Source of the DNA: Lysobacterales bacterium
GTDB lineage: Bacteria; Pseudomonadota; Gammaproteobacteria; Xanthomonadales; S139-57
Reading direction: 5' to 3'
Assembly: GCA_015485125.1 (NCBI GenBank)
Contig: WFUE01000130.1
Coordinates: 1 to 51,768 of the forward strand
DNA: 51,768 nucleotides
The position numbers and the translations under genes were made by a program. This document shows positions 4,049 to 51,768 of the stretch, one piece after another (the stretch's first letter is position 1; each line of letters opens with the position of its first letter). Under the pieces are notes generated by a model. That model was not told the origin of the DNA. It did not search any database and saw only the letters and a list, made by a program, of their open reading frames with translations.

Positions 4049-4882
4049 TCAGTCGTCCGCCGGCACCCCGCGATAGCGGCCCTTTTCATCCTGCTCCACC
4101 CGGGCCAGGGCGGTGTCCGGGTCGTGGGTGAAGAAGAAGCGCCAGCCCTGTGCCAGCGCCTGTTCCAGCACCCGCGCCTTCTCGTCGATGACGGTTTCGG
4201 CGCAGCGGTCATAGCCCATGGTGATGGGCAGGTGCACCCAGGGCAGGCCGGGAATGAGGTCGGCGGTGAACAGTACCTGCTCTTCAATCAGGGAAAGCAT
4301 CAGGCCGGGAGTGTGGCCTTCGGAGTAGAGAAAGCGCACCGCATCACCCAGCAGGGGATGATGGGCACCCTGTACCCGTTCCAGCTGCCCGCTTTCTTCC
4401 AGCAGGGCCGGCATCCACGGCAGGTAGGAGGCGCGATCGCGCGGGTGCGGATTGCAGGCCCGTTGCCACTGGGCCTCGGAGACCAGAATGCGGGCATTGG
4501 GGAAAGCCAGCGTCGGGGGCCGGTCTTCCCGCCAGGGCAGCACCAGCCCGCCGGCATGGTCGAAATGCAGGTGGGAAAGCACGACCAGGTCGATGTCCGC
4601 CGGTTCCACGCCCAGCGCATGCAGATGATCCAGCAGGCAATGGCGGCTTTCCTGCACGCCATAGCGCTGTTGCAGCGCTGGCGGCATGGAAACGCCCACG
4701 CCGGTCTCGAACAGCACCCGCCGGCCATTCAGCTCCACCAGCAGGCTGCGACAGGCCAGCGGAATGGTGTTGTGCTCGTCCACGGCCACCCAGCGCTGCC
4801 ACAGGGCCTTGGGCGCGTTGCCGAACATGGCCCCGCCATCCAGCCGCTGGGTATTGCCCTCCACCGGCTGAAAACGCTTCAT
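4049..4882 (-). CDS. MBL-fold metallo-hydrolase
   Basis: It carries the HLHFDHAGG (HxHxDH) zinc motif. I trimmed the start to MKRFQPVEGN (ATG at 4882), which overlaps the ggt stop (ATGA). Confidence 0.75.
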   Translation of the reverse strand: MKRFQPVEGNTQRLDGGAMFGNAPKALWQRWVAVDEHNTIPLACRSLLVELNGRRVLFETGVGVSMPPALQQRYGVQESRHCLLDHLHALGVEPADIDLVVLSHLHFDHAGGLVLPWREDRPPTLAFPNARILVSEAQWQRACNPHPRDRASYLPWMPALLEESGQLERVQGAHHPLLGDAVRFLYSEGHTPGLMLSLIEEQVLFTADLIPGLPWVHLPITMGYDRCAETVIDEKARVLEQALAQGWRFFFTHDPDTALARVEQDEKGRYRGVPADD

Positions 4883-6554
4883 GGCGCGGATTTCACCGCG
4901 GCCTTGCCCGATGGCCAGCGCGGGTCGGTCGCCGCTTCCAGATGCTGGCCGGCCTTGTCCCACATCACCCCGTGCATATAGCCCCAGGTATGTTTCTTGC
5001 GCACCACCGTGTGGCCCATGGCTTCCAGCGCCTGCACCGTCTCCCGCGACAGGGCGTCGGGTTCCAGGTAGATCTTGTCCGGCACATACTGGTGGTGGTA
5101 GCGCGGCAGGCTGACCCAGGAGGCCGGCCCGTGGCCTTCGAAGAAATCCAGCATGCCCAGCAACACCATGGTGATGATGCGGCTGCCGCCGGGCGTGCCC
5201 AGCACCGCCACCCGATCATCGCCAAAGACCATGCTCGGGCTCATGGAGGACAGCATGCGCTTGTAAGGCTCGATGGCGTTTGCGTGGTTGCCGATCAGGC
5301 CATAGGCGTTGGGGCTGCCCGGCTTGCTGGAGAAGTCATCCATCTCGTTGTTGAGCAGCACGCCCGTGCCCGGCGGAATGAAGCAGGAACCATAGGACGT
5401 ATTCACGCTCATGGTGGCCGACACCATGTTGCCTTCGGCATCCATCAGCGAGAAATGGGTGGTGTGCCCGCCCTCGGGCTTGGCGGCCGGGCCGGGCAGC
5501 ATGCTGCTGGGGGTAGCCTTGTCCAGGCGAATGGAAGCGCGCAGGCCGGCGGCGTAATCCTTGCTGGTCAGAAAGGAGGGTACTTGCACGAAATCCGGAT
5601 CACCCAGATAGATGGCCCGGTCCCGGTAGGCCCGGCGCATGGCTTCCACCACCAGATGCACGCGTGTGGCCTCGCTCATGGCTTCCAGGTCGAAAGGTTC
5701 GAGGATGTTGAGCATGGTGGCCAGGGCAATGCCGCCGGAGGATGGCAGGCTGGCGGTCACCACCTGCCACTGCTTGTAGCGGAATTTCACCGGCTCGCGC
5801 TCGATCACCCGGTAGCGAGCCAGGTCGTCCAGGGTCCAGATGCCACCGGCAGCCTGTACGCCCGCCACCAGTTTCTTCGCCACCTCGCCCTTGTAGAAGC
5901 CGTCATGACCCTTTTCCGCCAGCAGGCGCAGGGTATGGGCCAGATCCGGCTGGCGGATCAACTCGCCTTCCCTGGGCAGGCGGCCATCGATGGTCAGCTG
6001 TTTCACCGAGGCTGGATAGCGCCGGATCACCTTCATCCGGTGTTTCATCAGGGCGATGTATTTGGGATAGGCGGGGAAGCCTTCCTCGGCAATGCGGATG
6101 GCCGGTGCCAAAGACTGTTTCAGCGGCAGGCGGCCATAGTGCTCGGCCATCCAGGCCAGCGCCGCCGGCTCGCCGGGAATGCCCGCGGCCAGGGGCCCGT
6201 TCAGCGCCTTGTCCCGGTTCACGCTGCCGTCCGGGTTCTGAAACAGCTTTTCATGGGCCTTGCCGGGGGCGAACTCGCGCCCGTCGATCATGACCTCGCG
6301 GTTTTCATCGGCCAGATGCAGCAGCCAGAAACCGCCACCACCGATGCCCGAGGAGCTGGATTCCACCACCGCCAGCACCGAGCTGACGGCAATGGCGGCA
6401 TCAAAGGCGTTACCCCCCTGTTGCAGAATCTCCAGACCGGCCTCGGTGGCCAGATAGTGGCCGGAAGCAACCGCCACCCCCGGTGGCTGTTTGCTTTCCG
6501 CACCCGCCTGCGCCGTGGCCCCGAGGCACAGCAGTACCAGCAGCCAAACGCGCA

Positions 6555-6887: not shown

Positions 6888-7963
<1,076 letters not shown>

Positions 7964-8053
7964 ATTTTATTCATAGAAATAATGGTATCAAAGAATTATA
8001 TGCATAAAAACCGGCGCTAAGATAACTGTATCCACTACCCGAGGGTCTGAAGC
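7964..8053. promoter_or_regulatory. AT-rich divergent Lrp/ald control region
   Basis: This 90-nt intergenic stretch is much more AT-rich than its surroundings (aaattttattcatagaaataatggtatcaaagaattatatgcataaaaa). An Lrp-family regulator divergent from alanine dehydrogenase is a known arrangement. Confidence 0.35.
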
Positions 8054-9178
8054 ATGAAAATTGGCGTTCCAACCGAGATCAAGAACAACGAATTCCGCGT
8101 GGGCATGGTGCCGGCCAGCGTGCATGAGGCCGTGCATCATGGTCACGAAGTGCTGGTGCAGGCGGGGGCCGGCCTGGGCATTGGCGTCAGCGATGAGGAT
8201 TACCGCAGCGCCGGGGCGCAGATTCTGCCCGATGCCGCCAGTGTGTTCGCACAGGCGGAGATGATCGTCAAGGTCAAGGAGCCCCAGGCCGTGGAACGCC
8301 AGATGCTGCGCGAGGGCCAACTCTTGTTCACTTATCTGCACCTGGCACCCGACCCGGAACAGACTCGCGACCTGGTGGAATCCGGCGCGGTCTGCATCGC
8401 CTATGAAACCGTCACCGCCGACGATGGCAGCCTGCCCCTGCTGGCCCCCATGTCGGAAGTGGCCGGGCGGCTGTCCATTCAGGCCGGCGCCCGTTCACTG
8501 GAGAAAATCCATGGTGGACGTGGCGTGCTGCTGGGCGGCGTGGCCGGCGTGCAAGCCGCGCGCGTGGTGATCATCGGCGGCGGCGTGGTGGGCCGCAACG
8601 CCACCGCCATGGCCGTGGGCCTGGGCGCGGATGTGGTGGTGCTGGATCGCAACATCCAGGTACTGCGCTGGTTCGACAGCCATTACGGCAACCGGGTGCA
8701 GACGCTGTACTCCAGCCGGCACGCACTGGAAGAGCAGGTGCTGCAGGCCGATCTGGTCATCGGCGGCGTGCTCATACCGGGCGCGCGCGCACCGCATCTG
8801 GTCAGCGCCGACATGGTGCGGCGCATGCGTGAGGGCAGCGTGCTGGTGGATGTCTCCATCGATCAGGGCGGCTGTTTCGAGACTTCTCACCCCACCACCC
8901 ATGCCGAGCCCACCTATCTGGTGGATGGCGTGGTGCATTACTGTGTGGCCAACATGCCTGGCGCGGTGCCGCGGACTTCGGCTTTCGCGCTGAACAACGC
9001 CACCCTGCCCTATATCCTGCAACTGGCCGACCAGGGCTGGCGGCAGGCCCTGCTGGCCGATCCACATCTGCGCAACGGTCTCAATGTGGCTCATGGCAAG
9101 GTCTGCTACGCCCCCGTGGCGCGGGATCTGGGGTATGATTACACCCCCGTTGAACAATTGCTGGAACAGGCTGCTTGA
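8054..9178 (+). CDS. ald: Alanine dehydrogenase
   Basis: N-terminal [17 protein letters not shown], the Rossmann motif [12 protein letters not shown], and [10 protein letters not shown]. Confidence 0.9.
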
Positions 9179-38245: not shown

Positions 38246-39564
38246 GGTTGTGGAGCCTCCGCCTCATCCACGGGACCGGCGCTTTCCTCCGTACCCGACA
38301 GGTGCGCCACCACCTGCCGGAAGCTGTTCAGGCTCTGGCCGATGGGTGGCAGCTCCGGCTGCAACGGCGTCTGTTGTAACAGGGCCAGTTCCGCCAGTGC
38401 CTGTTTGACCTGCGCATCATTGGTATCGAACTGGTTTTCGATCCATGCGCGGGTATCGTTCAGCAGGGCCTGCACCTGATCCGGCTGCTGCCCGGTCAGG
38501 GCGCTTTCCAGCGCGCTCAGTTGCAGCACCAGCGCCTGATGGCTGGCCTGCTGCCAGCTGGCCGGCAGGGGCGGTGCCTCATCCACCCGCCGCAGGCTGA
38601 CCAGTTGGGAAAGCTGGCTCTGCAACCGGCCCCACCAGCCCGCGCCGCCCTCGGTAGTCTTCTTCTCGCCCGATTCGTTTTCGGCAGCCTTCAGCGGCCA
38701 GTGGGCCTGCTGCGCCTTCATTTCAGCCAGCCAGCCCAGCCAGCGGGCGATATCCGGCATGGCCACGGCCTTCAGGGCCTGGATTTCCGCCTCCACCTGC
38801 AAACGCACCCGCGTGTAGGCGGGATTGTCCAGCGCGGCCAGATGCTGGCTGGCCATTTCCAGCGCGCGCAGGGCCAGGTCGCGGTTCTGGAACAGTTCCA
38901 CCCGCAAAATGGCGGTACGCAGCAGGAATTCAATTTCCATCAGTTTCTGCGCCCGGTCGCCACCGGTCTTCAATTGCGCCAGCTGCATCAGCGCATTCTG
39001 GAAACGGTCGTCGGCCCGTTGCAGGGCATCGATCTGCTGCTTGAGCCCGGCCTGCTGCTGACGCAGGGATTCCAGCGTGCCCGCCTGCTGTTGCCGCACC
39101 TGTTCCAGCGCCTGTTGCAGTTGTTCCAGTTGCTGGCGGTGGCGACTCTCACCTTCCTTGAGAAAACGCAGCTGCTGCTGCACCTGTTCCAGCGGACCCT
39201 GCCAGGGCGGGGTCACCGGCGTCGATTGCCGTTGCCATTGCTGCCAGCCCAGCCAGCTGGCCAGTACCAGCGCCAGCAGTGCCAGCAACAGAGCGGCGGC
39301 TCCCAGGCCCCGGCCCGTGCCGTTGCGGGCAGGGGCATCGGCTGACGGTGGGGCCTGATGTATTTCATCATGGGCTTCTTCGGCAGCTTCATCCGCTTCC
39401 AGCGGCTCGGCTGTGCTTTCGGCCTGCAGCACGGGCGGTTCCCGCCCGGCATCGGAGGCGGCTTGCGCCGGTCTTTCTTCCGATACGTTTTCTTCCGCTT
39501 CCAGCGTTTCCGAAGCCGGATTTTCCTGTTCGTGTTCCGGTGTCTTGTCCTGGCTCATCTTCAT
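38242..39564 (-). CDS. hemX: HemX-like protein (often annotated as a uroporphyrinogen-III C-methyltransferase)
   Basis: An acidic low-complexity N-terminus, a single TM segment (LGAAALLLALLALVLASWLGW), then a Q-rich coiled coil. The gene lies before hemY. Confidence 0.7.
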   Translation of the reverse strand: MKMSQDKTPEHEQENPASETLEAEENVSEERPAQAASDAGREPPVLQAESTAEPLEADEAAEEAHDEIHQAPPSADAPARNGTGRGLGAAALLLALLALVLASWLGWQQWQRQSTPVTPPWQGPLEQVQQQLRFLKEGESRHRQQLEQLQQALEQVRQQQAGTLESLRQQQAGLKQQIDALQRADDRFQNALMQLAQLKTGGDRAQKLMEIEFLLRTAILRVELFQNRDLALRALEMASQHLAALDNPAYTRVRLQVEAEIQALKAVAMPDIARWLGWLAEMKAQQAHWPLKAAENESGEKKTTEGGAGWWGRLQSQLSQLVSLRRVDEAPPLPASWQQASHQALVLQLSALESALTGQQPDQVQALLNDTRAWIENQFDTNDAQVKQALAELALLQQTPLQPELPPIGQSLNSFRQVVAHLSGTEESAGPVDEAEAPQP

Positions 39565-42125
39565 TCATCCAGCATGATTTGTCGGGCGGGCTCCCGGTCG
39601 TTGTAGCGGGAGGACATCACGGCGCCATACGCACCCGTATTGGCCACCAGCATCATATCACCTTCCCGGCAGATAGGCAGTTGTCGATCCACGCCGAGAA
39701 TGTCGCCTGTTTCACAGATTGGGCCTACCACCGTGGCCGTCAAGGCCGGCGGCTCGTGCAGGCGCGTCAGATTGACGATGGGGTGGTAGGCGCCATAGAG
39801 CACCGGACGAATCAGGGAGTTCATTCCGGTTTCCACGCCCACATAGTGGGTACTGCCCTTGCGCTTGGTCTGGGTCACCCGGCTGACCAGCACGCCGCTG
39901 TTGGCCACCACAAAGCGGCCCGGCTCCAGCCAGAGTTCCACATCCGGGTGTTGCCGGCGGATTTCCGCCAGGCTTTCATCCAGCGCCTGCATGTTCAGCG
40001 CCGGCTCGCCGGGAGATTCCTGTATGCCCAGACCCCCGCCCAGGTCGATATGGCGCACGTCGGGGAAAGCTTGGCGCACCCGGTGGAGGAAGCGCGCGGT
40101 CTGTTGCCAGTTTTCGTAGTTGAGAATGCCGCTGCCGGTATGGGAGTGCAGCCCTTCCACGGTCACGCCATGCTGTTTCAGCAGCGCGGCCATGGGTTCG
40201 ATTTCTTCCGGCGAGATGCCGAACTTGGAGCCCTCTCCCGCCGTGCGCACATATTTGTGATGACCCTTGCCGTGGCCGGGGTCCATGCGCAGCATGACGG
40301 TCTTGCCGGCAAAGACTTCCGGCCAGGCTTCCAGCGGGTAGCGGTTGTCCAGAGTCACATGCACGCCCAGCTCGAAGGCCCGTTCGTATTCCTCCCGTGG
40401 GGCGAAGTTGGGCGTAAAGAGGATGCGGTCGCGGTCGATGTCCGGGAACAGCCGCAACACTTTTTCCAGCTCGTTGGGTGATACGCACTCCAGCCCTAGC
40501 CCGGCGGCCTCCACAATGCGCAGCACCGGCTCGAAATCGTTGGCCTTCATGGCGTAGAACACCCGATTGACCTGCCGCAGGGATTGCAGCTGCGCCAGCT
40601 GCCGGCGGATGGTGTCGCCGTGGTAGATGTAGGCGGGGGTTTGGTCTTCGGCAAAGGCCAGCAGCCGTTCCCGCTCACGCTCCCACCAGGGCGCTTCGCT
40701 GGGGGCATAGGCCTTGAGGTTTTCCTGCATCAGCTCTTCCCAGGTGGGGCCGAGCACACCGGGGCTGCGCTCGATGCCGATGAGCAAGCGGTGCAGGTTC
40801 TTGGCCAGCCGTTCGGTCTGGTCTTCATCCACCACCACGGTGAGGTTGAGGTCGTTGGAGGACTGGTTGAGCATGTGGATGCGATGTTCGGCAAACACCT
40901 GCATGGCCGGCCCCAGCTTGTGCAGGGTGGCGCGCATGCGCCGGCCCACCAGGGTGACAGCACCGCAGTTTTCGATCAGCTCCACCTGGCAGAGTTCTTC
41001 CAGATCGGCTTTCAGGCCCAGCAAGTCGGCGCGGGTGAATTCGTTTTCGCTCTGGTCCAGCGAGACGGTGACATTGGTCTGCGAGGTGGAAATCAGGTCC
41101 ACCGACAGCCCGTGACTCTTGAACACGGCGAAGGCCTCGGCGAGAAAACCGGCCTGATGCCACATGCGCACGGTGTTCATGGAAACCAGCACCAGCCCCT
41201 TGCGCACCGAGATGGCCTTGACCTGGGTGGGCTGCACCCGTTCGGCCTTGCCGATGCAGGTGCCGCCGGCTTCCGGCTTCTGCAGGGCGTAGACGCACAG
41301 GGGAATGCCCGCCTCGGCCACCGGCTGAATGCAGCGCGGATGCAGCACCTTGCCCCCGGCGGAGGCGATTTCCTGCGCCTCGTCGTAATCCAGTTCCAGC
41401 AGCTGGCGGGCGGTGCTGATCATGCGCGGGTTGGCGGTGAACATGCCGGGCACATCGGTGTAGATTTCCAGCATTTCCGCCTGCAGGCGCACGGCCAGAT
41501 AGGCCGCGCTGGTGTCGGAACCTTCCCGCCCCAGCAGCAGGGTACGCCCGTATTCATCACCGCAGATGAAGCCCTGGGTCAGGCACAGGGGCGCGTGCCG
41601 GGCCAGATCCTCCTGCAGCGCCGGGTCGGGCGCGTGCTGGCAGCGGGCGGAGAGAATGCGGCTGCGCAGGTTGCGCTGGTCGTCTTCCACCGGGCTGAGC
41701 AGCTTGCGGGCATCCAGCCACACCGCCGGCAGGCCCTGCTGTTGCAGCCAGGCGCAGGAAAGGTGCGTGGCCAGCAACTCGCCCTGGGCCATGATTTCCG
41801 CCTCCAGGTACTCGCTGGCATTTTCCTGCTCGAGCCGCCCGGCCAACTGGCGCAGCTGCTCGAAACCTTCCGCCAGCACAGCCAGGTCCACGCCCATTTC
41901 CGTCGCCAGCGCCTCGTGCCGGGCCTGGATGTCGTCCACCAGCGCCCCATCGCGGCTTTCGATCAGCGCCGCCAGCTGGTTGGATACGCCAGCCAGGGCG
42001 GAATGCACCACCAGCACCGGCTGTTGGGCGATTTTCTCTTTCAGCAGGTCACGAATGCGTTGCCAGTTCTGCACGGTGGCCACACTGGTGCCACCGAATT
42101 TCATCACGCGCCATTGCTTGCTCAT
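39561..42125 (-). CDS. Bifunctional aspartate kinase / diaminopimelate decarboxylase fusion
   Basis: The N-terminal half is an aspartokinase (VMKFGGTSVA, ACT-like region). The C-terminal half is a PLP decarboxylase (FYAMKAN, HSHTGSG, CETGD). I trimmed the start to MSKQWRVMKFGG (ATG at 42125). Confidence 0.85.
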   Translation of the reverse strand: MSKQWRVMKFGGTSVATVQNWQRIRDLLKEKIAQQPVLVVHSALAGVSNQLAALIESRDGALVDDIQARHEALATEMGVDLAVLAEGFEQLRQLAGRLEQENASEYLEAEIMAQGELLATHLSCAWLQQQGLPAVWLDARKLLSPVEDDQRNLRSRILSARCQHAPDPALQEDLARHAPLCLTQGFICGDEYGRTLLLGREGSDTSAAYLAVRLQAEMLEIYTDVPGMFTANPRMISTARQLLELDYDEAQEIASAGGKVLHPRCIQPVAEAGIPLCVYALQKPEAGGTCIGKAERVQPTQVKAISVRKGLVLVSMNTVRMWHQAGFLAEAFAVFKSHGLSVDLISTSQTNVTVSLDQSENEFTRADLLGLKADLEELCQVELIENCGAVTLVGRRMRATLHKLGPAMQVFAEHRIHMLNQSSNDLNLTVVVDEDQTERLAKNLHRLLIGIERSPGVLGPTWEELMQENLKAYAPSEAPWWERERERLLAFAEDQTPAYIYHGDTIRRQLAQLQSLRQVNRVFYAMKANDFEPVLRIVEAAGLGLECVSPNELEKVLRLFPDIDRDRILFTPNFAPREEYERAFELGVHVTLDNRYPLEAWPEVFAGKTVMLRMDPGHGKGHHKYVRTAGEGSKFGISPEEIEPMAALLKQHGVTVEGLHSHTGSGILNYENWQQTARFLHRVRQAFPDVRHIDLGGGLGIQESPGEPALNMQALDESLAEIRRQHPDVELWLEPGRFVVANSGVLVSRVTQTKRKGSTHYVGVETGMNSLIRPVLYGAYHPIVNLTRLHEPPALTATVVGPICETGDILGVDRQLPICREGDMMLVANTGAYGAVMSSRYNDREPARQIMLDE

Positions 42126-42216
42126 GCCGCCATCTTTCCTGCTGCCAAAAACCGGCAGTGTATGCATGGGCGGCCCGTGGGGGAATAGTCCATTCGGTAT
42201 TGATGTGTGATGACAA

Positions 42217-43617: not shown

Positions 43618-46390
<2,773 letters not shown>

Positions 46391-46397
46391 CCGCCTG

Positions 46398-47537
46398 TCA
46401 GTAAAACGGCTGCTCCCAGGGCATCCCCGCCTGCCAGTGCCCCCACCAGGCCAGTTCCGTCAGGGGCTTGTCGGCCTTGACAAAGCTTTCCTGACACAGA
46501 CTGTTCCACAAAGGCGGATCGGACAGCGCCTTTCTCCAGCGGTCACCCAGATCGCGACCATCCGCCATGAATTGCACCTGCTCCGGCTCCACGCCACCGG
46601 GCATGTATTGCAGGCGTACCAGCACTTCCTCACCCAGCCCCGCGCGCACACCGGCCAGCGCCAGCTTGCGTGCCAACAGGTTGCCGAAACGATCCACCTT
46701 GTAAAAATCCTTGCCTGAAAGCGCACCGCCACCGATGGGTACGGTGGGGCCGTAGAAATCCATCACCAGCTTGCGCCCGGTACTGCCGTTGTCGCCCATC
46801 GGGCCGGCAACCGTGAATGAGCCACCGGGATTGATCCACAAACGTGGCATGCCAAACGACTTGCAGACGCGTTCCACGGTCTCGGTCAGAATTTGCTGCA
46901 TCCAGAACGGATCGGTCTGTTCATGGTGACTGAGGCTGATGACCACGGTCTCCGGCTGCCATTGGGAACCGTTCCGTCGTACCCGAACCAGCACCTTGCC
47001 ATCCGGCCCCAGCCATTGCGGATGATTCTGCCGGCAGGCAAAGAGTGCCTGTGCCAGCGCGCGAGCCAGCCAGTGAGCCGGCGGCAAATGATTCGTTTCT
47101 TCGCATGCGTTGGCATAACCCACACAAAGGGCCTGGTCACAGATCACATGCAGGTTTTGCTTGATCTCGTGCGGCAGGCTGAAACGCCGAATCAGACTGT
47201 GAATATTCAGTCTGGACGGCTGTGGCGGCCATAGATGCCCACCGGTACTGTCCCCATAGCCACACTGGCGCAACACCTGCAGAAACAGATCCTTGTCCAG
47301 GGGCGTTGCTGTACCACCCGTCCAGCCATTGTGCGGCTGGTGCAGGCTGACATGGAGCTGTTCGTGCAACATCTGCACTTCCACACTGCACAGATCCTTG
47401 CGTTGTTTTCTCACACGTGCCCGCCAGCCGTTACCGGCACCGAGGATCTGGTCCACCACCGCGTCAGCCATGGCGTCACACAATTTGTCCGGATGACCGG
47501 GCAAGACATATTCGGCGGTTTCTTCACTTATTTCCAT
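46398..47537 (-). CDS. Divergent MetK-like (S-adenosylmethionine synthetase fold) protein
   Basis: MetK motifs are retained: GHPDKLCDAMADAVVD, CDQALCVGYA, LGPDGKVLV, INPGGSFTVAGPMGDNGSTGRKLVMDFYG, and GGGALSGKDFYKVDR. The start at ATG 47537 has AGGAGAG upstream and overlaps the upstream gene by 10 nt. Confidence 0.7.
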   Translation of the reverse strand: MEISEETAEYVLPGHPDKLCDAMADAVVDQILGAGNGWRARVRKQRKDLCSVEVQMLHEQLHVSLHQPHNGWTGGTATPLDKDLFLQVLRQCGYGDSTGGHLWPPQPSRLNIHSLIRRFSLPHEIKQNLHVICDQALCVGYANACEETNHLPPAHWLARALAQALFACRQNHPQWLGPDGKVLVRVRRNGSQWQPETVVISLSHHEQTDPFWMQQILTETVERVCKSFGMPRLWINPGGSFTVAGPMGDNGSTGRKLVMDFYGPTVPIGGGALSGKDFYKVDRFGNLLARKLALAGVRAGLGEEVLVRLQYMPGGVEPEQVQFMADGRDLGDRWRKALSDPPLWNSLCQESFVKADKPLTELAWWGHWQAGMPWEQPFY

Positions 47538-48883
47538 GACGGTCTCTCCTGGTTTTTCCAGAAAAACGCCCTGGCATTGAAATCCTGCAGAAAAGCCTGT
47601 TGCTCCAACAGCCATTCACCTGCATGGGTAACGAATACATGCACCCGTCGTCCCTGACGCAAACGGGCAACCAGATGCTCCGGGACGCGCCCCACCCAGC
47701 CATCGGTTATGATCAGTGCGTGTTTCACATCATGCTTGAGCATGTGTCTGGCCACACACTCGATCTCCGTCCCCCACCAGGTATCCACCTGCCCCTCGCG
47801 CAAGGCCTGCAGATCGATATCCCGCACGCGCGTACTGAACAGATGCACCTCTGGATACAGGGCCTCGCGTGCTGCCAGCAGCTCTCCGTAACAATGGGGC
47901 AGCCAATGCGCCATGGAACCACTGACATCCAGGTAGATATGCACGCTGCCACCCCGATTGCGCGCCTGCGGGCGGACATGGGTCTGCAGCAACGTCTGCC
48001 AGCCCAGCAAACGCCCCAGCCAGGCACGGCGATCCCGGCTGGACGGCAAGGGCATGATCACCTTTTCTGTTTCCGGCTGGGGCGAACGGGCCACTCCCGC
48101 CTCGTGCAGTAGCGGCCACAAGGCCCGGCGGAACTGCCGCCTGACCTCGTCGGGTGACGCCTTCGGTACGATGGCATGACAAGAAAGGGTTGCCTCCGCG
48201 CCACGCAGTGGTTGCGGGTAACGCTGACCGATCTCATCCAGCGCCTGTTGCAACAGGGGGTCGACTGTGGACTTCTGGCCCAGGACCGGCTCATGACCGC
48301 CCAGCAGCAGGATATCCACACGCGGGCACAGCGACAGGATGGCGTCGATCAGGTCCGTCAACGGTAATTGGGTACTGCTGTACAGGAGCTGGTGGACCTG
48401 CAAAGCCCGGCCTTGCAAGCACCAGCGAACAGACGACTCGCCCCAGCCTGGCGGTGGCCGCAACCAGGCATATGGCAGGGCGTCGGGGCGATACAACCGG
48501 CGAAACAGGCCTGTCCATCGTGGTTCCGGAAAGGCCTGGCACAACTGGGCGTTGATCAGGGCATCGAAGGCCAGATTGTGCACGCTGTCCACCGGTCCGT
48601 TCCAGCGGGTGTGGCCCAGCATGACATGCAGCAATTCATGCATCACCAGCATGGCCAGCGCTTCCCGGGTCGCGCAGTGCCGCATCACGAAATCCGGATT
48701 GATACGCAGGCGGGGCCGGTGTTCCAGGGTGACGGCCGCGGTTTCCACCTCGCGGCATACCTTGATTTCCAGTATTTCAAGCAACTGGTGAAAGGCCGGA
48801 TTTTCCACCGGCAGGGCCTGGAGGATACGTTCCAGCAAACGCTCGCTTTCCTCTGTACGCCGGACCAGTGCATGGGCGCTCAT
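47528..48883 (-). CDS. HExxH metallopeptidase-like N-domain plus VWA-like C-domain protein (DUF2201-type MoxR partner)
   Basis: HELLHVMLGH, followed by NLAFDALINAQ. The C-terminal MIDAS-like motifs are YLDVSGSM ... GTEI ... IITDG. Confidence 0.7.
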   Translation of the reverse strand: MSAHALVRRTEESERLLERILQALPVENPAFHQLLEILEIKVCREVETAAVTLEHRPRLRINPDFVMRHCATREALAMLVMHELLHVMLGHTRWNGPVDSVHNLAFDALINAQLCQAFPEPRWTGLFRRLYRPDALPYAWLRPPPGWGESSVRWCLQGRALQVHQLLYSSTQLPLTDLIDAILSLCPRVDILLLGGHEPVLGQKSTVDPLLQQALDEIGQRYPQPLRGAEATLSCHAIVPKASPDEVRRQFRRALWPLLHEAGVARSPQPETEKVIMPLPSSRDRRAWLGRLLGWQTLLQTHVRPQARNRGGSVHIYLDVSGSMAHWLPHCYGELLAAREALYPEVHLFSTRVRDIDLQALREGQVDTWWGTEIECVARHMLKHDVKHALIITDGWVGRVPEHLVARLRQGRRVHVFVTHAGEWLLEQQAFLQDFNARAFFWKNQERPSWK

Positions 48884-49446
48884 GGTCTGTTCCCCGCCAT
48901 GGCATGGACACGGAGGCCTTTCACCCAGCCGACCTGTGGCGGCAATTGCAACATGCGTTGGCTGCTATACAGAGGTGGTCTGCTACCAGCCAGCAGACAC
49001 AGGGCCCGCGCGGGGTCCATTTCCAGCGATCCTGCCCGGCACATATCCGGTTCCAGTTCCTGAGCCACTGCGAAGGGTGGCAAACCGGGATTCATGGCCT
49101 GTATAGCCTCCAGTGCATCAATCAGGGCCTGTTCCAGCGTCTCGCGCTTGCTGTCGAACCAGACTTCCACCCGCCGGCAACAGGGCGCTTCCGTATCACC
49201 ATCACCGGCGGCCCACCGTGCCAGTTCCAGCCAGCAGGCCCACGGCATCCGGGGTTGTTCATCGATGGTGTACGGTCCCCAGCATTGCTGGATCTCGCCT
49301 TCCCGCTCCATCCAGTGAAAAGGAGGAAAATGACGGGCCAGCAGCTGCAATGGCTGCACTGTGGCCAGCACACGCATGCCCATTGCCCTTGCCAGGGTGG
49401 TGCCGCCGCGTGGTGGAACATAAACCTTGGTTGTGGGCACTTTCAT
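48880..49446 (-). CDS. Orphan 188-aa protein (Trp/Cys/Pro-rich), no recognised family
   Basis: The ORF is bracketed by ATGA stop/start overlaps on both sides (49443-49446 and 48880-48883), which argues that it is translated. Confidence 0.5.
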   Translation of the reverse strand: MKVPTTKVYVPPRGGTTLARAMGMRVLATVQPLQLLARHFPPFHWMEREGEIQQCWGPYTIDEQPRMPWACWLELARWAAGDGDTEAPCCRRVEVWFDSKRETLEQALIDALEAIQAMNPGLPPFAVAQELEPDMCRAGSLEMDPARALCLLAGSRPPLYSSQRMLQLPPQVGWVKGLRVHAMAGNRP

Positions 49447-50876
49447 TCAGCCACCTCCCGTTCCTGTTCATCGATCCGGAACAAGACCCGCCAGTTGAGA
49501 TCCAGCATCACCAGTTGTTCCGGGTCAAACCGGGTCCGACGCTTTTTCAGAAACAGGTATAACAGGATGTTGCCCAGCTGCTCGGCTTCCGGGTGACCGT
49601 TTTGTTCCAGCGCCGTCACCGTCTGACGCAGGCGGCTCCATTGCCGGCCGTTACCCCATTGGTATTCGAAGGTGCGGTCTTTCCTGACGCAGAAGGCGAG
49701 AACCCCACTCAAGGTTTCCGCCAGGATTTCCTGTACGGTGGTGGTGAATGCTTCTGGAGAAACGGCCATCAACAAATTGCGAACCAGAATGAAGCGTTCC
49801 TCCTCGCTGGTTTTTTCCCAGGCATCACTGAACAACTGCGAGCGTTGCAAACGGGTAATCTGTGGCTCACGCAAGGCCAGCGCCAGCCGGCAGACCGGAT
49901 CTTTCTCCCTGCGCAGCTTCTGCCAGAAGTCCATCTGTGGATTACCGGCACATTGCACCGCTTCCTGATGAGCGGCCAACAAGCCATGCGCGGGTATTTC
50001 CTGCCCCTGCGCCGGATGAGGCAAGCTCCATCGCAATGTTTGCAGCGCCAGGCTTTCCAATGGTTGTTCCTGACCAAGAACCCGGCTGGCAACCGTCAGC
50101 GACTCCAGGTTTCGCAGCAACAGCACCAGACGACGGCCACTCAGGTAAATACCGGCCTCGGCCAGGGGCCCTACCAGTGATTGTGCCCAGCGCTGCATCC
50201 AGAGTCGATCGGCTGCCGGCAACTGCGCCGACTCTGCACGGGCTTGCCTGATCATCGGCTCCAGCCGGTGATCCGTCCGTATCGGCGCGTCACCATGCAG
50301 CAGCATGCGTTCGCATTCTTCTTCAGGGAAGCTGGTGAAATCCGGAATGGAGACAATCCAGGCAAACCGGTCTGCCAGCGGAGCTTCCAGCGGCAGCGAG
50401 CCTGCATAGTGATCTGCCTCGTCACCCCATTGCACCGGTGGATTCATGGCCGACCAGCAATAGCGCAGCTTTTCCAGTTTTACTCCCAGCACGCGCCTTT
50501 CGTGAATCATGGAAAACAGCTTGTTCTGGGTTTCGGGCCGGCAACGGGAAATCTCGTCAAAAAATACCGATTCAGCCGCCCAGATGCTGGCCGGTGTCTG
50601 CAGGTATTGCAACTGTTCACCGGCCGCATCCGGTACAGGAAAACCCAGCAGATCATCGAAACTGATCAAGCTGGCATTGTAGTGTCTGTGTTCCAGCCCC
50701 AGAGCCTCGGAAAGCCGGTTGAGCAAGGCCGACTTGGCCGTGCCATGCCTGCCGATGAGCAGTAACGGACGCGCATCGGCCAGTGCGGCCAGCACCATCG
50801 CGTCCAGTTCGTCCAGACCGTAGATATGAAGTTGACGCAACAGCCGCGCCGGTTTGGTGGATGCCTGATTGGACAT
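49443..50876 (-). CDS. MoxR-type AAA+ ATPase with a ~280-aa helical C-terminal extension
   Basis: Walker A GRHGTAKS, Walker B VFFDEISR, sensor-1-like SAMNP, and LADRF. The start at ATG 50876 has GGAAGGAGG 5 nt upstream. Confidence 0.8.
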
Positions 50877-50940
50877 GACGACCTCCTTCCCCGCCCAGAC
50901 CCATCGCTGGTCAGACCCGGGGGAAGCAGGCTCTGCCAAC

Positions 50941-51000
50941 GCTTTAGCTGCATTTGTGAATCGCCCGCAAGTTGTTGCTTAAATCGGCGATGTTTTCCGT
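50941..51000. repeat. Direct repeat unit R1 (~60 nt), proximal to the MoxR operon start
   Basis: gctttagctgcatttgt..cgcccgcaag.tg...c.t.aaatcggcg......gta is shared with 51051-51110. The first 17 nt are identical, and by eye about three quarters of positions match overall. Confidence 0.7.
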
Positions 51001-51012
51001 ACACCGGAAATG

Positions 51013-51047
51013 AAAAAACCCGCTCGGCCACAGCCAACGCGGGTTCT
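51013..51047 (-). terminator. Weak terminator-like hairpin between repeat units R2 and R1
   Basis: The minus strand reads AACCCGC-(15-nt loop)-GCGGGTT followed by TTTTCATTT. The stem is only 7 bp and the loop is large. Confidence 0.35.
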
Positions 51048-51050
51048 TCC

Positions 51051-51110
51051 GCTTTAGCTGCATTTGTTACGCGCCCGCAAGCTGAGCATCAAATCGGCGC
51101 ATCTTCAGTA
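51051..51110. repeat. Direct repeat unit R2 (~60 nt)
   Basis: The second copy of the repeat at 50941-51000, in the same orientation, with a 110-nt period. Confidence 0.7.
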
Positions 51111-51269
51111 TCCACAAGATCAGAATTTTGTCAAATCCCGTTTATCCCCGTACGGATGCGCAAACAGACAGGCACAGCGTTTTTCGCCCCCCTCACAGGA
51201 GCATGGCCATTTTTTGCACAGCACAGGCTTGCTACAATAGCCGGTTCATTGTTTGAAGCAGGCGCGCCC

Positions 51270-51768
51270 ATGCCCCAGTCACAGCAACAGTTCGATGTCA
51301 TCGTGGTCGGTGGCGGTCATGCCGGTACCGAGGCGGCACTGGCGGCCGCGCGCATGGGTTGCCGTACCCTGCTTCTGACCCACAACATCGACACCATCGG
51401 CCAGATGAGTTGCAACCCGGCCATCGGTGGCATCGGCAAGGGGCATCTGGTCAAGGAGGTGGACGCGCTGGGCGGGGCCATGGCGCGAGCGGCGGATCTG
51501 GGCGGCATCCAGTTTCGCATCCTCAACCGGCGCAAGGGCCCGGCGGTACGGGCCACCCGCGCCCAGGCCGACCGGGCCCGCTACAAGGCGGCTATTCGTG
51601 CCATGGTGGAAAACCAGCCGGGGCTGCACCTGTTCCAGCAGGGCGTGGAAGACCTGCTGGTGGAAGGGGAGCGGGTCACCGGCGTGCGCACCAGCATGGG
51701 GCTGGATTTTTACGGCCCGGCGGTGGTGCTGACCGTGGGCACTTTTCTTGGCGGGCGCATCCACATTG
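51270..51768 (+). CDS. mnmG: tRNA uridine 5-carboxymethylaminomethyl modification enzyme MnmG (GidA), 5' part; continues beyond the window
   Basis: Manual translation from ATG 51270 gives [69 protein letters not shown]. This ORF is absent from the track because no stop codon falls in the window. Confidence 0.9.

Follow-up and report, generated by a model that had tools for sequence, protein, structure and literature searches.

Here we describe a four-gene cassette under S-adenosylmethionine (SAM) riboswitch control in a 51.8-kb metagenome scaffold of a Lysobacterales bacterium (contig WFUE01000130.1; 51,768 nucleotides; hereafter the window). The genes, A–D, encode a MoxR-type AAA+ ATPase, an orphan protein, a zincin fused to a von Willebrand factor A (vWA) domain, and a divergent paralogue of the SAM synthetase MetK. 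They follow a leader with two SAM aptamers, and both operon and leader are on the minus strand. Comparison across genomes shows that the five parts (SAM-riboswitch leader, A, B, C, and D) are inherited together, as one block, in many phyla. The firm part of our interpretation is the architecture with its SAM gate. As for function, we tentatively favour, at somewhat less than an even chance, a mobile backup adenosyltransferase that is induced when SAM is depleted and has a MoxR/vWA-zincin partner of its own. In the direction of transcription, the features are:

51107–51134, minus strand: promoter-like site (TTGACA, 16-nt spacer, GATACT) upstream of the leader; consensus match only
51042–51106, minus strand: SAM-II-type aptamer 1; Rfam SAM_alpha (RF00521) match, with core and P1 stem GCGCC/GGCGC
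51008–51048, minus strand: intrinsic-terminator-like hairpin and U-run after aptamer 1; inverted repeat 51014–51023/51039–51048, then TTTTTT
50932–50996, minus strand: SAM-II-type aptamer 2; second copy of a 50-nt direct repeat
50882–50930, minus strand: predicted Shine-Dalgarno-sequestering helix; anti-Shine-Dalgarno strand 50920–50930 pairs with the GGGGAAGGAGG Shine-Dalgarno region 50882–50892
49443–50876, minus strand: gene A, MoxR-type AAA+ ATPase, 477 aa, with a long helical C-terminal extension
48880–49446, minus strand: gene B, orphan protein, 188 aa; no Pfam, NCBIfam or PADLOC match
47528–48883, minus strand: gene C, HExxH zincin (DUF2201_N) fused to a vWA domain with a complete metal ion-dependent adhesion site (MIDAS), 451 aa
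46398–47537, minus strand: gene D, divergent MetK-family adenosyltransferase paralogue, 379 aa, with S-AdoMet_synt N, M, and C domains
46374–46386, minus strand: weak terminator-like hairpin of 5 pairs, then CCCCTTTTTC; consensus match only, just past the D stop and within the parE 3' end

The four-gene operon is confirmed. A sequence-only reading of the window had described four minus-strand open reading frames (ORFs) joined by stop/start overlaps, and the coordinates and all three junctions are as it described: ATGA at 49443–49446 between A and B, ATGA at 48880–48883 between B and C, and a 10-nt overlap between C and D at 47528–47537 (ATG, 47537–47535; TAA, 47530–47528). The overlaps argue for translational coupling from A to D. 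Terminator-like sites inside the operon are no more numerous than in shuffled sequence, which together with the overlaps fits a single translationally coupled operon. The extent given by that reading, 46398–50876, is too short, however: it ends at the start codon of A and leaves out the leader at 50877–51134 with the two SAM aptamers.

The start codon of A is separated from the divergent gene mnmG by a 394-nt intergenic region, which contains the 50-nt direct repeat (51050–51099 and 50940–50989; 82% identical). On the operon strand, positions 51033–51110 match Rfam SAM_alpha with 32.2 bits and E values of 1.1e-5 to 1.8e-4, the lower of which comes from a 351-nt search. All core nucleotides of SAM-II (GAUUU...CUUGC...GCUAAAG) are present in aptamer 1. 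The Rfam search of the window leader does not report aptamer 2. A covariance model built from the locus sequences (R1) assigns 72.6 bits to aptamer 1 and 80.5 bits to aptamer 2, and the outer P1 pair is U-A in aptamer 2 versus G-C in copy 1, a compensatory change. In an alignment of 26 sequences, the core is invariant, and P1 and the pseudoknot form standard pairs in 99% of cells, compared with 35–45% for slid 3' partners. In this alignment, the outer pair of P1 is U-A in 13 sequences, G-C in eight, and C-G in five.

The same element recurs before gene A in other genomes. In over 40 sources, model R1 has a match directly 5' of gene A, and a simple search with the core pattern finds the element at that position in dozens of loci; outside these sites the SAM-II core pattern occurs three times in 1.6 Mb. 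A second SAM-II subtype combines the same core with other P1 stems (GGGGG/CCCCC, CGUCG/CGACG, CCAC/GUGG). Loci that lack SAM-II have SAM-I/IV or SAM-I aptamers of gathering-level score in the same position, frequently two in series, and some loci have mixed tandems, SAM-I/IV followed by SAM-II or by SAM-I. Altogether, at least one SAM aptamer precedes gene A in 53 of the 60 non-redundant loci with upstream sequence, and at least two do so in 16. The aptamer-less loci are mainly those of Planctomycetota, and the two that were probed (L071 and L028) give sub-threshold matches to the SAM-I clan. The presence of two structurally unrelated aptamer folds before the same cassette indicates that the ligand is SAM, and that SAM control has been selected for in its own right.

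In the window, the layout of the leader shows an apparent two-tier gate, in which aptamer 1 would be coupled to the terminator (transcription) and aptamer 2 to the Shine-Dalgarno-sequestering helix (translation). Downstream of aptamer 2, the anti-Shine-Dalgarno strand CCUGCUUCCCC pairs with the GGGGAAGGAGG Shine-Dalgarno region; this inverted repeat (I1) spans 11 nt, is 91% complementary, and is present in both the minimum-free-energy and the centroid folds. The order of aptamer and terminator is also seen in L001, L005, L013, L014, L019, L022, and L057, and a CUUCCCC...GGGGAAGGAG helix equivalent to the sequestering helix of the window follows aptamer 2 in L001, L005, L013, L014, L022, and L057. 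The two-tier layout is found in Gammaproteobacteria, Acidobacteriota, Krumholzibacteriia, and others. When SAM binds to riboswitches of the SAM-I and SAM-II types, the balance shifts towards the terminator and towards a sequestered Shine-Dalgarno sequence. Because these riboswitches repress with SAM, the operon should be off, doubly so, unless SAM is scarce. By this analogy we infer that SAM would shut off the operon at both transcription and translation, and that the proteins would be made only upon collapse of the SAM pool.

Several minor observations concern the leader. On the opposite strand, 51013–51132 (plus) matches Rfam RF02424 (Burkholderia sRNA Bp2_Cand287_SIPHT) with 29.9 bits (gathering score 70); the RF02424 consensus is the reverse complement of the SAM-II core, and the family may be an antisense annotation of the SAM-II riboswitch. 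An HD_4 protein, with a RelA/SpoT-type hydrolase domain and resembling small alarmone hydrolases, is encoded in L011 (979–1512, plus) and L012 (3159–3935, plus) between an upstream SAM-II aptamer or tandem and gene A, which is then preceded by another aptamer. Apart from HD_4 in L011 and L012, Pfam assigns no family to ORFs between upstream aptamers and gene A. Beside the cassette, ORFs without a Pfam family each follow a SAM-II-type aptamer of their own in L066 (12465–13028 and 11505–12188, minus), L010 (3258–3896, plus), and L059 (6499–7095 and 7088–7558, plus). The products of those in L066 and L010 look alike at their N-termini. All of these ORFs may be further members of the SAM regulon.

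Gene D has 2028 relatives at E ≤ 1e-5; besides one sister at 74%, the best are 39–47% identical. Starting from D homologues, the order AAA_5/bpMoxR, small ORF, DUF2201_N/vWA, MetK-like is found in the sister genome, a Krumholzibacteriia metagenome-assembled genome (MAG), a Burkholderiaceae MAG, and two more contigs. Queried with aligned C sequences, a set of 185,579 species representatives (a single genome for each species) yields the cassette in at least 231 of them. The best 80 of these belong to Beta-, Gamma-, and Alphaproteobacteria, Acidobacteriota, Planctomycetota, Chloroflexota, Gemmatimonadota, Spirochaetes, Krumholzibacteriia, and Eisenbacteria. With hidden Markov models (HMMs) from four seed cassettes, the A-(B)-C-D order is present in 72 of 84 loci, the exceptions being mostly contig ends, and the HMM scores of A, C, and D co-vary across loci. 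The four genes thus recur in this order in at least 70 of 80 loci, as a conserved unit in about ten phyla.

Outside the cassette, the flanking genes share nothing across loci, and most neighbours are ordinary. Strong PADLOC matches account for about 10 of 278 neighbour ORFs (mREase_IV, DpdE, PLD_Helicase, MzaB, MzaC, PDC-S01, MkoA); the enrichment in defence genes is a rough estimate. Other neighbours at some loci are related to defence or are toxin–antitoxin genes (DndB, AIPR, HEPN; BrnT/A), as well as WYL-type regulators and helicases. In L014, the place of D is taken by a 364-aa protein and an N-formylglutamate amidohydrolase homologue (Pfam FGase); Pfam finds no family other than FGase among the genes replacing D there. 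In L066, A is apparently frameshifted. A degraded remnant of the cassette, consisting of a vWA fragment and D without A, is located at 8652–11182 of L087, a 1.4-Mb contig, among toxin–antitoxin genes (HicB, NYN, TacA/GNAT, ParE/Phd, BrnA, HI1420-type) and an integrase.

Gene A matches Pfam AAA_5 with 37.1 bits (cut-off 22; E 3.9e-9). The MoxR-specific models stay below their cut-offs in the window (bpMoxR, 23.1 versus 27 bits; AAA_3, 23.5 versus 27 bits), and in the gene A homologues of L002 and L003 the bpMoxR match carries no 'weak' label. The Walker A motif is GRHGTAKS and the Walker B motif VFFDEI. Among the relatives, the Walker A lysine is present in 63 of 64 and the Walker B Asp-Glu pair in all 64. 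In addition, gene A adjoins its vWA partner, in the order A-(B)-C, in at least 72 loci.

Gene C matches Pfam DUF2201_N with 32.8 bits (cut-off 23.2; E 7.1e-8), and its N-terminal part is accordingly predicted to belong to this zincin metallopeptidase family. VWA_CoxE gives 17.9 bits, below its 26.4-bit cut-off (E 0.0022), so that the vWA assignment rests on the MIDAS motifs (DVSGS, GT, and TDG in the window) together with this weak match. HExxHxxxGH, DxSxS, and the MIDAS aspartate are present in all 82 relatives and the MIDAS threonine in 78. An exhaustive search returns 196 clusters (50% identity) at E ≤ 1e-30. All motifs of A and C that the sequence-only reading had quoted, including GRHGTAKS, VFFDEI, and ITDG, are found in the translations, and the profile searches agree with its family assignments (AAA_5, DUF2201_N, and the S-AdoMet synthetase domains).

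Gene D is a MetK paralogue of altered methionine site. The S-AdoMet_synt_C and _M domains score above cut-off (71.3 and 50.2 bits) and the _N domain just under it (30.7 versus 33.1 bits). Against the metK equivalog model TIGR01034, D reaches 151.7 bits (cut-off 309.4), and it is 31% identical to E. coli MetK. For residue numbering we used an E. coli MetK sequence that matched PDB 7ll3 over its full length. All ATP, triphosphate, Mg2+, and K+ ligands are present in window D. In its relatives, His14, Asp16, Lys17, Glu42, Asp118, Gln119, Asp163, Lys165, Phe230, Asp238, Lys245, Lys265, Lys269, Asp271, and Arg272 are kept in 57–60 of 60 sequences (Lys269 in 57 and, Arg272 aside, the others in 58–60). 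Glu55, the ligand of the methionine alpha-amino group, is replaced by histidine in window D and by arginine in 56 of 60 relatives. The alignment at position 55 is secure because the 13-residue spacing from Glu42 is identical in the D and MetK families. The gating loop of D is three residues shorter, and Gln98 is replaced by cysteine in 45 of 60 relatives, arginine in six, and histidine in three; the window has arginine. The claim that D keeps essentially all MetK active-site motifs therefore holds for the ligands of ATP, triphosphate, Mg, and K, but not for Glu55 and Gln98 of the methionine site. In human MAT2A, a methionine adenosyltransferase (MAT), Glu70 (equivalent to Glu55) binds the methionine nitrogen together with Asp258, and Gln113 (equivalent to Gln98) binds its oxygen; the Gln113Ala variant retains 75% activity (PMC6850014). 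The AlphaFold 2 model of window D (pLDDT 83, pTM 0.85) has TM scores of 0.74–0.77 to MetK and MAT2A structures. Its best match is E. coli MetK chain 8bb1_A, from a complex with T3 SAM lyase (TM score 0.76). From sequence and model, D looks like an active ATP-cleaving adenosyltransferase with a rebuilt acceptor pocket.

A canonical metK, 58–66% identical to E. coli MetK, shares a contig with the cassette in L015, L016, and L021. In L015 (~7452–8618) and L016 (~4657–5826), both of Holophagae/Acidobacteria, it is directly 3' of D in the same transcription unit; in two Burkholderiales-type loci it is within 5 kb of the cassette (L021, 2019–3164; L066, 13215–13860, minus). For about 80 loci this adjacency is above chance; a functional link, or membership in one riboswitch regulon, may lie behind it. 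D scores half the TIGR01034 cut-off and a canonical metK is on the same contig in three loci; D is therefore not the housekeeping MetK. It had been left open whether D is the sole metK of its genome, and the co-occurrence in L015, L016, and L021 speaks against this. We therefore consider it effectively excluded that D is the genome's housekeeping metK, under the usual SAM riboswitch and next to a MoxR/vWA pair by chance, for although SAM riboswitches commonly precede metK and no canonical metK is present in the 51.8-kb metagenome scaffold, the genes of the cassette overlap and have been inherited together in about ten phyla, the riboswitch precedes A and not D, D has the low TIGR01034 score and the 31% identity given above, canonical metK co-occurs in three loci, and the cassette occurs in only at least 231 of the 185,579 species representatives.

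Gene B has no match in Pfam, NCBIfam or PADLOC, and a single-sequence homologue search with it returns the query itself only; its relatives were gathered by position and then by profile. A gene in the B position is present in 75 loci, 51 of its products align as one family, and the gap between A and C is always filled. At least 241 clusters come out of the profile search. Of the four proteins, B evolves fastest (49% identity between the window and the sister contig L001). Most family members have a near-invariant LHNMSAPP[RK] motif after a variable leader (for example L053, 9531–10049). In some clades the motif is replaced by HN[SIT]G.. or HMG.., and window B keeps only VYVPPRG. In the predicted structure of a main-clade representative (P0122), the first ~45 residues, including LHNMSAPP[RK], are disordered, and residues 50–176 form a confident alpha/beta domain, for which Foldseek of the P0122 model against the PDB finds no significant match. 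A conserved, apparently disordered peptide is what we would expect of a pore handle for an AAA+ ring, a protease site or a ligand of an enzyme pocket. Which residue D has at E. coli position 262 (W, L or M) goes along with the kind of motif in B, a correlation that may reflect phylogeny only, and in the clade of the window and L001 both the B motif and D residues 55 and 98 are changed.

The comparison of the window operon (46398–50876) and its flanks with the sister contig L001 (4680–9131) reveals a sharp contrast. Window versus L001, the values are:

parE (flank): amino acid identity 97%; synonymous divergence (dS) 0.25; nucleotide identity 91–97%
mnmG (flank): nucleotide identity 92–95%
gene A: amino acid identity 65%; dS for A–D 1.1–1.4; nucleotide identity of the whole operon 51–82%
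gene B: amino acid identity 49%; dS and nucleotide identity as for gene A
gene C: amino acid identity 59%; dS and nucleotide identity as for gene A
gene D: amino acid identity 74%; dS and nucleotide identity as for gene A

The operon has diverged far beyond its flanks, indicating that the two cassettes are much older than the split of their hosts. The ratio of nonsynonymous to synonymous divergence (dN/dS) of A–D is 0.17–0.35. The leader is 93% and 80% identical in windows of 150 columns, and the adjoining intergenic window 56%. From aptamer 1 to just before the Shine-Dalgarno sequence there are a handful of differences, and the remaining intergenic region is scrambled. A divergent operon with a well-conserved leader at the same site suggests allelic replacement or a long-lived polymorphism, as at conflict loci. 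The GC content of the operon is 0.58–0.63, compared with 0.65–0.68 in the adjoining 42–46 kb stretch. Metagenome contigs were also scanned with a 20-mer of the parE 3' end for a parE–mnmG arrangement free of the cassette (28 loci; one distant parE, 75% identical, on a short contig).

The core of the cassette resembles known activase modules. The MoxR/vWA pairs CbbQ/CbbO (for Rubisco), NorQ/NorD, and CoxD/CoxE are such modules. As in these systems, a gene for a MoxR AAA+ protein stands beside a gene for a vWA protein with intact MIDAS and an enzyme gene in one operon, which suggests ATP-driven remodelling of a dedicated client. Unlike them, the cassette has an N-terminal HExxH zincin on its vWA protein, an obligatory orphan protein B, a putative client of MetK fold, and riboswitch gating of the operon, and it is sporadic and mobile and not part of a core pathway. 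The vWA-MoxR NTP-dependent conflict systems (Kaur, Burroughs, Iyer, Aravind 2020, PMC7159879) share with it the MoxR and vWA core, the patchy distribution, and the variable neighbourhoods; in these systems, peptidase domains, rarely of metallopeptidases, are fused to the vWA component. In contrast, VMAP, iSTAND, a beta-propeller or any other described third component is lacking in the cassette, and it has both a MetK homologue and riboswitch control, where MetK or SAM synthetase is not mentioned and riboswitch control not described for the conflict systems. The statement that no described MoxR/vWA module has a MetK-fold partner holds in the searchable literature, where full-text searches for MoxR, vWA or DUF2201 with MetK, SAM synthetase or SAM riboswitch give nothing relevant.

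The leader, in turn, resembles the S-box/SAM-I, SAM-I/IV, and SAM-II regulons, with aptamers 5' of a MAT-family gene, terminator or Shine-Dalgarno expression platforms, and expected repression by SAM. Unlike the metK of those regulons, the cassette consists of four genes led by an AAA+ ATPase, its MAT member is divergent with an altered methionine site, and one and the same cassette has different aptamer classes in different phyla. Poiata and colleagues are said to have described, in 2009, a tandem of SAM-II and SAM-V in 'Candidatus Pelagibacter ubique', one acting on transcription and one on translation. The tandems of the cassette differ in being mostly SAM-II with SAM-II, or SAM-I/IV with SAM-II or SAM-I, and in standing before one gene set in at least 16 loci of several phyla. 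The parts (MoxR-vWA modules, MAT enzymes, and SAM riboswitches) are thus known; the combination, the client or effector, and the pervasive riboswitch gating are new.

The sequence-only reading had offered two options, an activase for an adenosyltransferase and a defence or stress module for an adenosyl metabolite. The present analysis narrows these to a response to SAM depletion. We favour a backup adenosyltransferase because the sensor reports SAM, the only metabolic enzyme of the cassette is of the SAM synthase family, and riboswitches normally sense the product of their own pathway. Collapse of the SAM pool would open the riboswitches, so that A–D are made. D would cleave ATP at C5' and hydrolyse the triphosphate as MetK does, upon failure of the housekeeping route it would rebuild SAM or an analogue very close to it, and its product would close the riboswitches in an end-product feedback. 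The putative hexameric MoxR ring of A and the vWA MIDAS of C could dock on a partner, which may be D, the resident MetK or the disordered N-terminal peptide of B, and could remodel or proteolytically process it to activate, assemble or reset the enzyme, as CbbQ/CbbO act on Rubisco. The trigger may be an attack on the SAM supply (a phage SAM lyase, a MetK inhibitor or an antimetabolite) and not ordinary starvation, as suggested by the rebuilt methionine pocket, the mobility of the cassette, and the divergence island; the altered pocket would make D insensitive to such an attack.

The arrangement proposed here has a parallel in T-box-controlled, resistant aminoacyl-tRNA synthetase paralogues (ileS2), which serve as backup when the primary enzyme is inhibited. 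In both cases, a divergent paralogue of an essential enzyme is placed behind an RNA sensor that opens when the product is missing. The sensor, the enzyme family, and the partners all differ, however, and resistance of D to an inhibitor is hypothetical.

A number of observations weigh against the backup adenosyltransferase. With Glu55, which hydrogen-bonds the methionine amino group, replaced by arginine or histidine and the gating loop altered, L-methionine may not be the acceptor of D and SAM may not be its product. That double gating is so pervasive hints at harm from expression, and a toxic effector would explain this better than a benign backup. L014 and L066 have the riboswitch and A-B-C but no D (L014, 11502–13422; L066, 9923–11368). 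The partner of A and C is a candidate drawn by analogy, and the zincin domain is foreign to the known activases. Aptamer 1 of the window, at 32.2 bits, is under the Rfam gathering score of 36. PADLOC 2.0 gives no significant match for any of A–D, and the cassette, searched with C as query, is absent from GenBank phages, PLSDB plasmids, and IMG/VR; the link to phage attack is circumstantial for these two reasons.

Phage attack is the centre of a related possibility, which we regard as unlikely but worth stating: the cassette could be an immune 'guard' of the SAM pool, in which the tandem riboswitches sense infection through the SAM collapse brought about by the SAM lyases or MetK inhibitors with which phages disarm restriction-modification and BREX. 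The MoxR/vWA-zincin machine would then deploy an attack-resistant MetK paralogue, which either restores SAM and thereby SAM-dependent immunity or kills the cell. Phage T3 cleaves SAM and inhibits MetK, escaping BREX and restriction (bioRxiv 10.1101/2023.02.27.530186).

Slightly further down the scale, and unlikely in our view, is suicide by abortive infection. Here a phage SAM-degrading enzyme would de-repress the operon, A, B, and C would license D to burn ATP (and methionine), and growth would stop before the phage completes its cycle. Tandem gating of transcription and translation suggests that leakiness is costly, MoxR-vWA proteins with fused peptidases are typical of NTP-dependent conflict systems, with bpMoxR as the nearest MoxR profile of A, and the divergence island and the fast evolution of B point in the same direction. 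A SAM synthase homologue behind a SAM sensor is, however, more simply explained by homeostatic feedback, and a canonical metK in the same transcription unit, as in L015 and L016, would be unexpected if the operon served suicide. Defence or toxin–antitoxin genes are among the neighbours, but their enrichment is only roughly estimated, the cassette itself has no PADLOC match, and a dN/dS of 0.17–0.35 is that of ordinary purifying selection.

The rebuilt pocket raises the question of another acceptor. D could adenosylate something other than L-methionine, either a methionine derivative without a free alpha-amine or the methionine in the LHNMSAPP[RK] motif of B, and C and A would process or release the product, giving a SAM-regulated route to another adenosyl or sulfonium compound. 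The exchange of Glu55 for arginine (56/60) and of Gln98 for cysteine (45/60; arginine in six, histidine in three) next to untouched ATP and triphosphate sites is in keeping with such chemistry, and the equivalent Glu70 of MAT2A binds the methionine nitrogen (PMC6850014). The loop change by itself is weak evidence, as Gln113Ala of MAT2A keeps 75% activity (PMC6850014), and Lys269 and Asp238, which contact methionine, are conserved. B does have a conserved, disordered peptide with a methionine, the residue at position 262 of D tracks the B motif, and the clade of the window and L001 has altered the B motif together with D residues 55 and 98; nevertheless, the B–D correlation may be phylogenetic only, and the methionine is not universal (HNSGY and HNIGG in other clades, VYVPP in the window). 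We keep the conserved methionine of B as a substrate of D only as a minor rival because it is absent from several clades, including that of the window. Riboswitches, moreover, normally report the product of their own pathway, which points to SAM. New chemistry is doubtful, and we give it a low probability.

Improbable, in our judgement, is a role of A, B, and C in remodelling or proteolysis for the housekeeping MetK, where they would strip off an inhibitor or dissolve inactive polymers, and D would be a MetK-shaped adaptor that hetero-oligomerises with it. The proposal comes from gene adjacency and from analogy with CbbQ/CbbO, NorQ/NorD, and CoxD/CoxE, and its interactions are putative. A canonical metK adjoins the cassette in L015 and L016 and is near the D-less A-B-C of L066, but such adjacency is found in only ~3 of ~80 loci. 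T3 SAM lyase traps MetK in complexes (bioRxiv 10.1101/2023.02.27.530186), and one of these, PDB 8bb1, is the top structural match of D. On the other hand, if D were purely an adaptor, its catalytic residues would not all have to be invariant.

The cassette adds to the SAM riboswitch regulon a widespread unit (at least 231 species representatives and, in metagenomes, hundreds of clusters) that is neither a biosynthesis nor a transport operon. It offers MoxR-vWA biology a tractable candidate client or effector, a MetK-fold enzyme. The recruitment of unrelated riboswitch classes before the same four genes is unusually strong comparative evidence of a purpose tied to SAM scarcity. If D makes SAM without the universal glutamate, the view of what is essential in a MAT would change; if it uses another acceptor, it would represent a new adenosyl-transfer chemistry. 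If SAM depletion by phage is the trigger, the cassette would follow a new logic of immune sensing, and as a guard of the SAM pool it would be a defence system with a metabolite riboswitch for its sensor, and among MoxR-vWA modules the first to have an effector of MetK fold.

Some details of the surroundings complete the description. The stop codon of D (46398–46400) is 7 nt from that of the convergent parE (46388–46390), as had been noted; the accompanying claim that no terminator lies there does not stand in full, as the weak terminator-like hairpin (46386–46374) is inside the parE 3' end. The promoter-like site at 51107–51134 is the sole sigma-70-like match in 46200–51400, a count of 1 that is not higher than the shuffled mean of 1.6. 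An origin of replication (oriC) beside mnmG was considered and rejected: the intergenic region has one 8-of-9 match to the DnaA box, and the window-wide count is not above that in shuffled sequence. Elsewhere in the window, at 39561–42167 (minus), an 868-aa ORF combines an aspartokinase-type AA_kinase domain with Orn/DAP/Arg decarboxylase domains and is apparently a fused enzyme of the lysine pathway.

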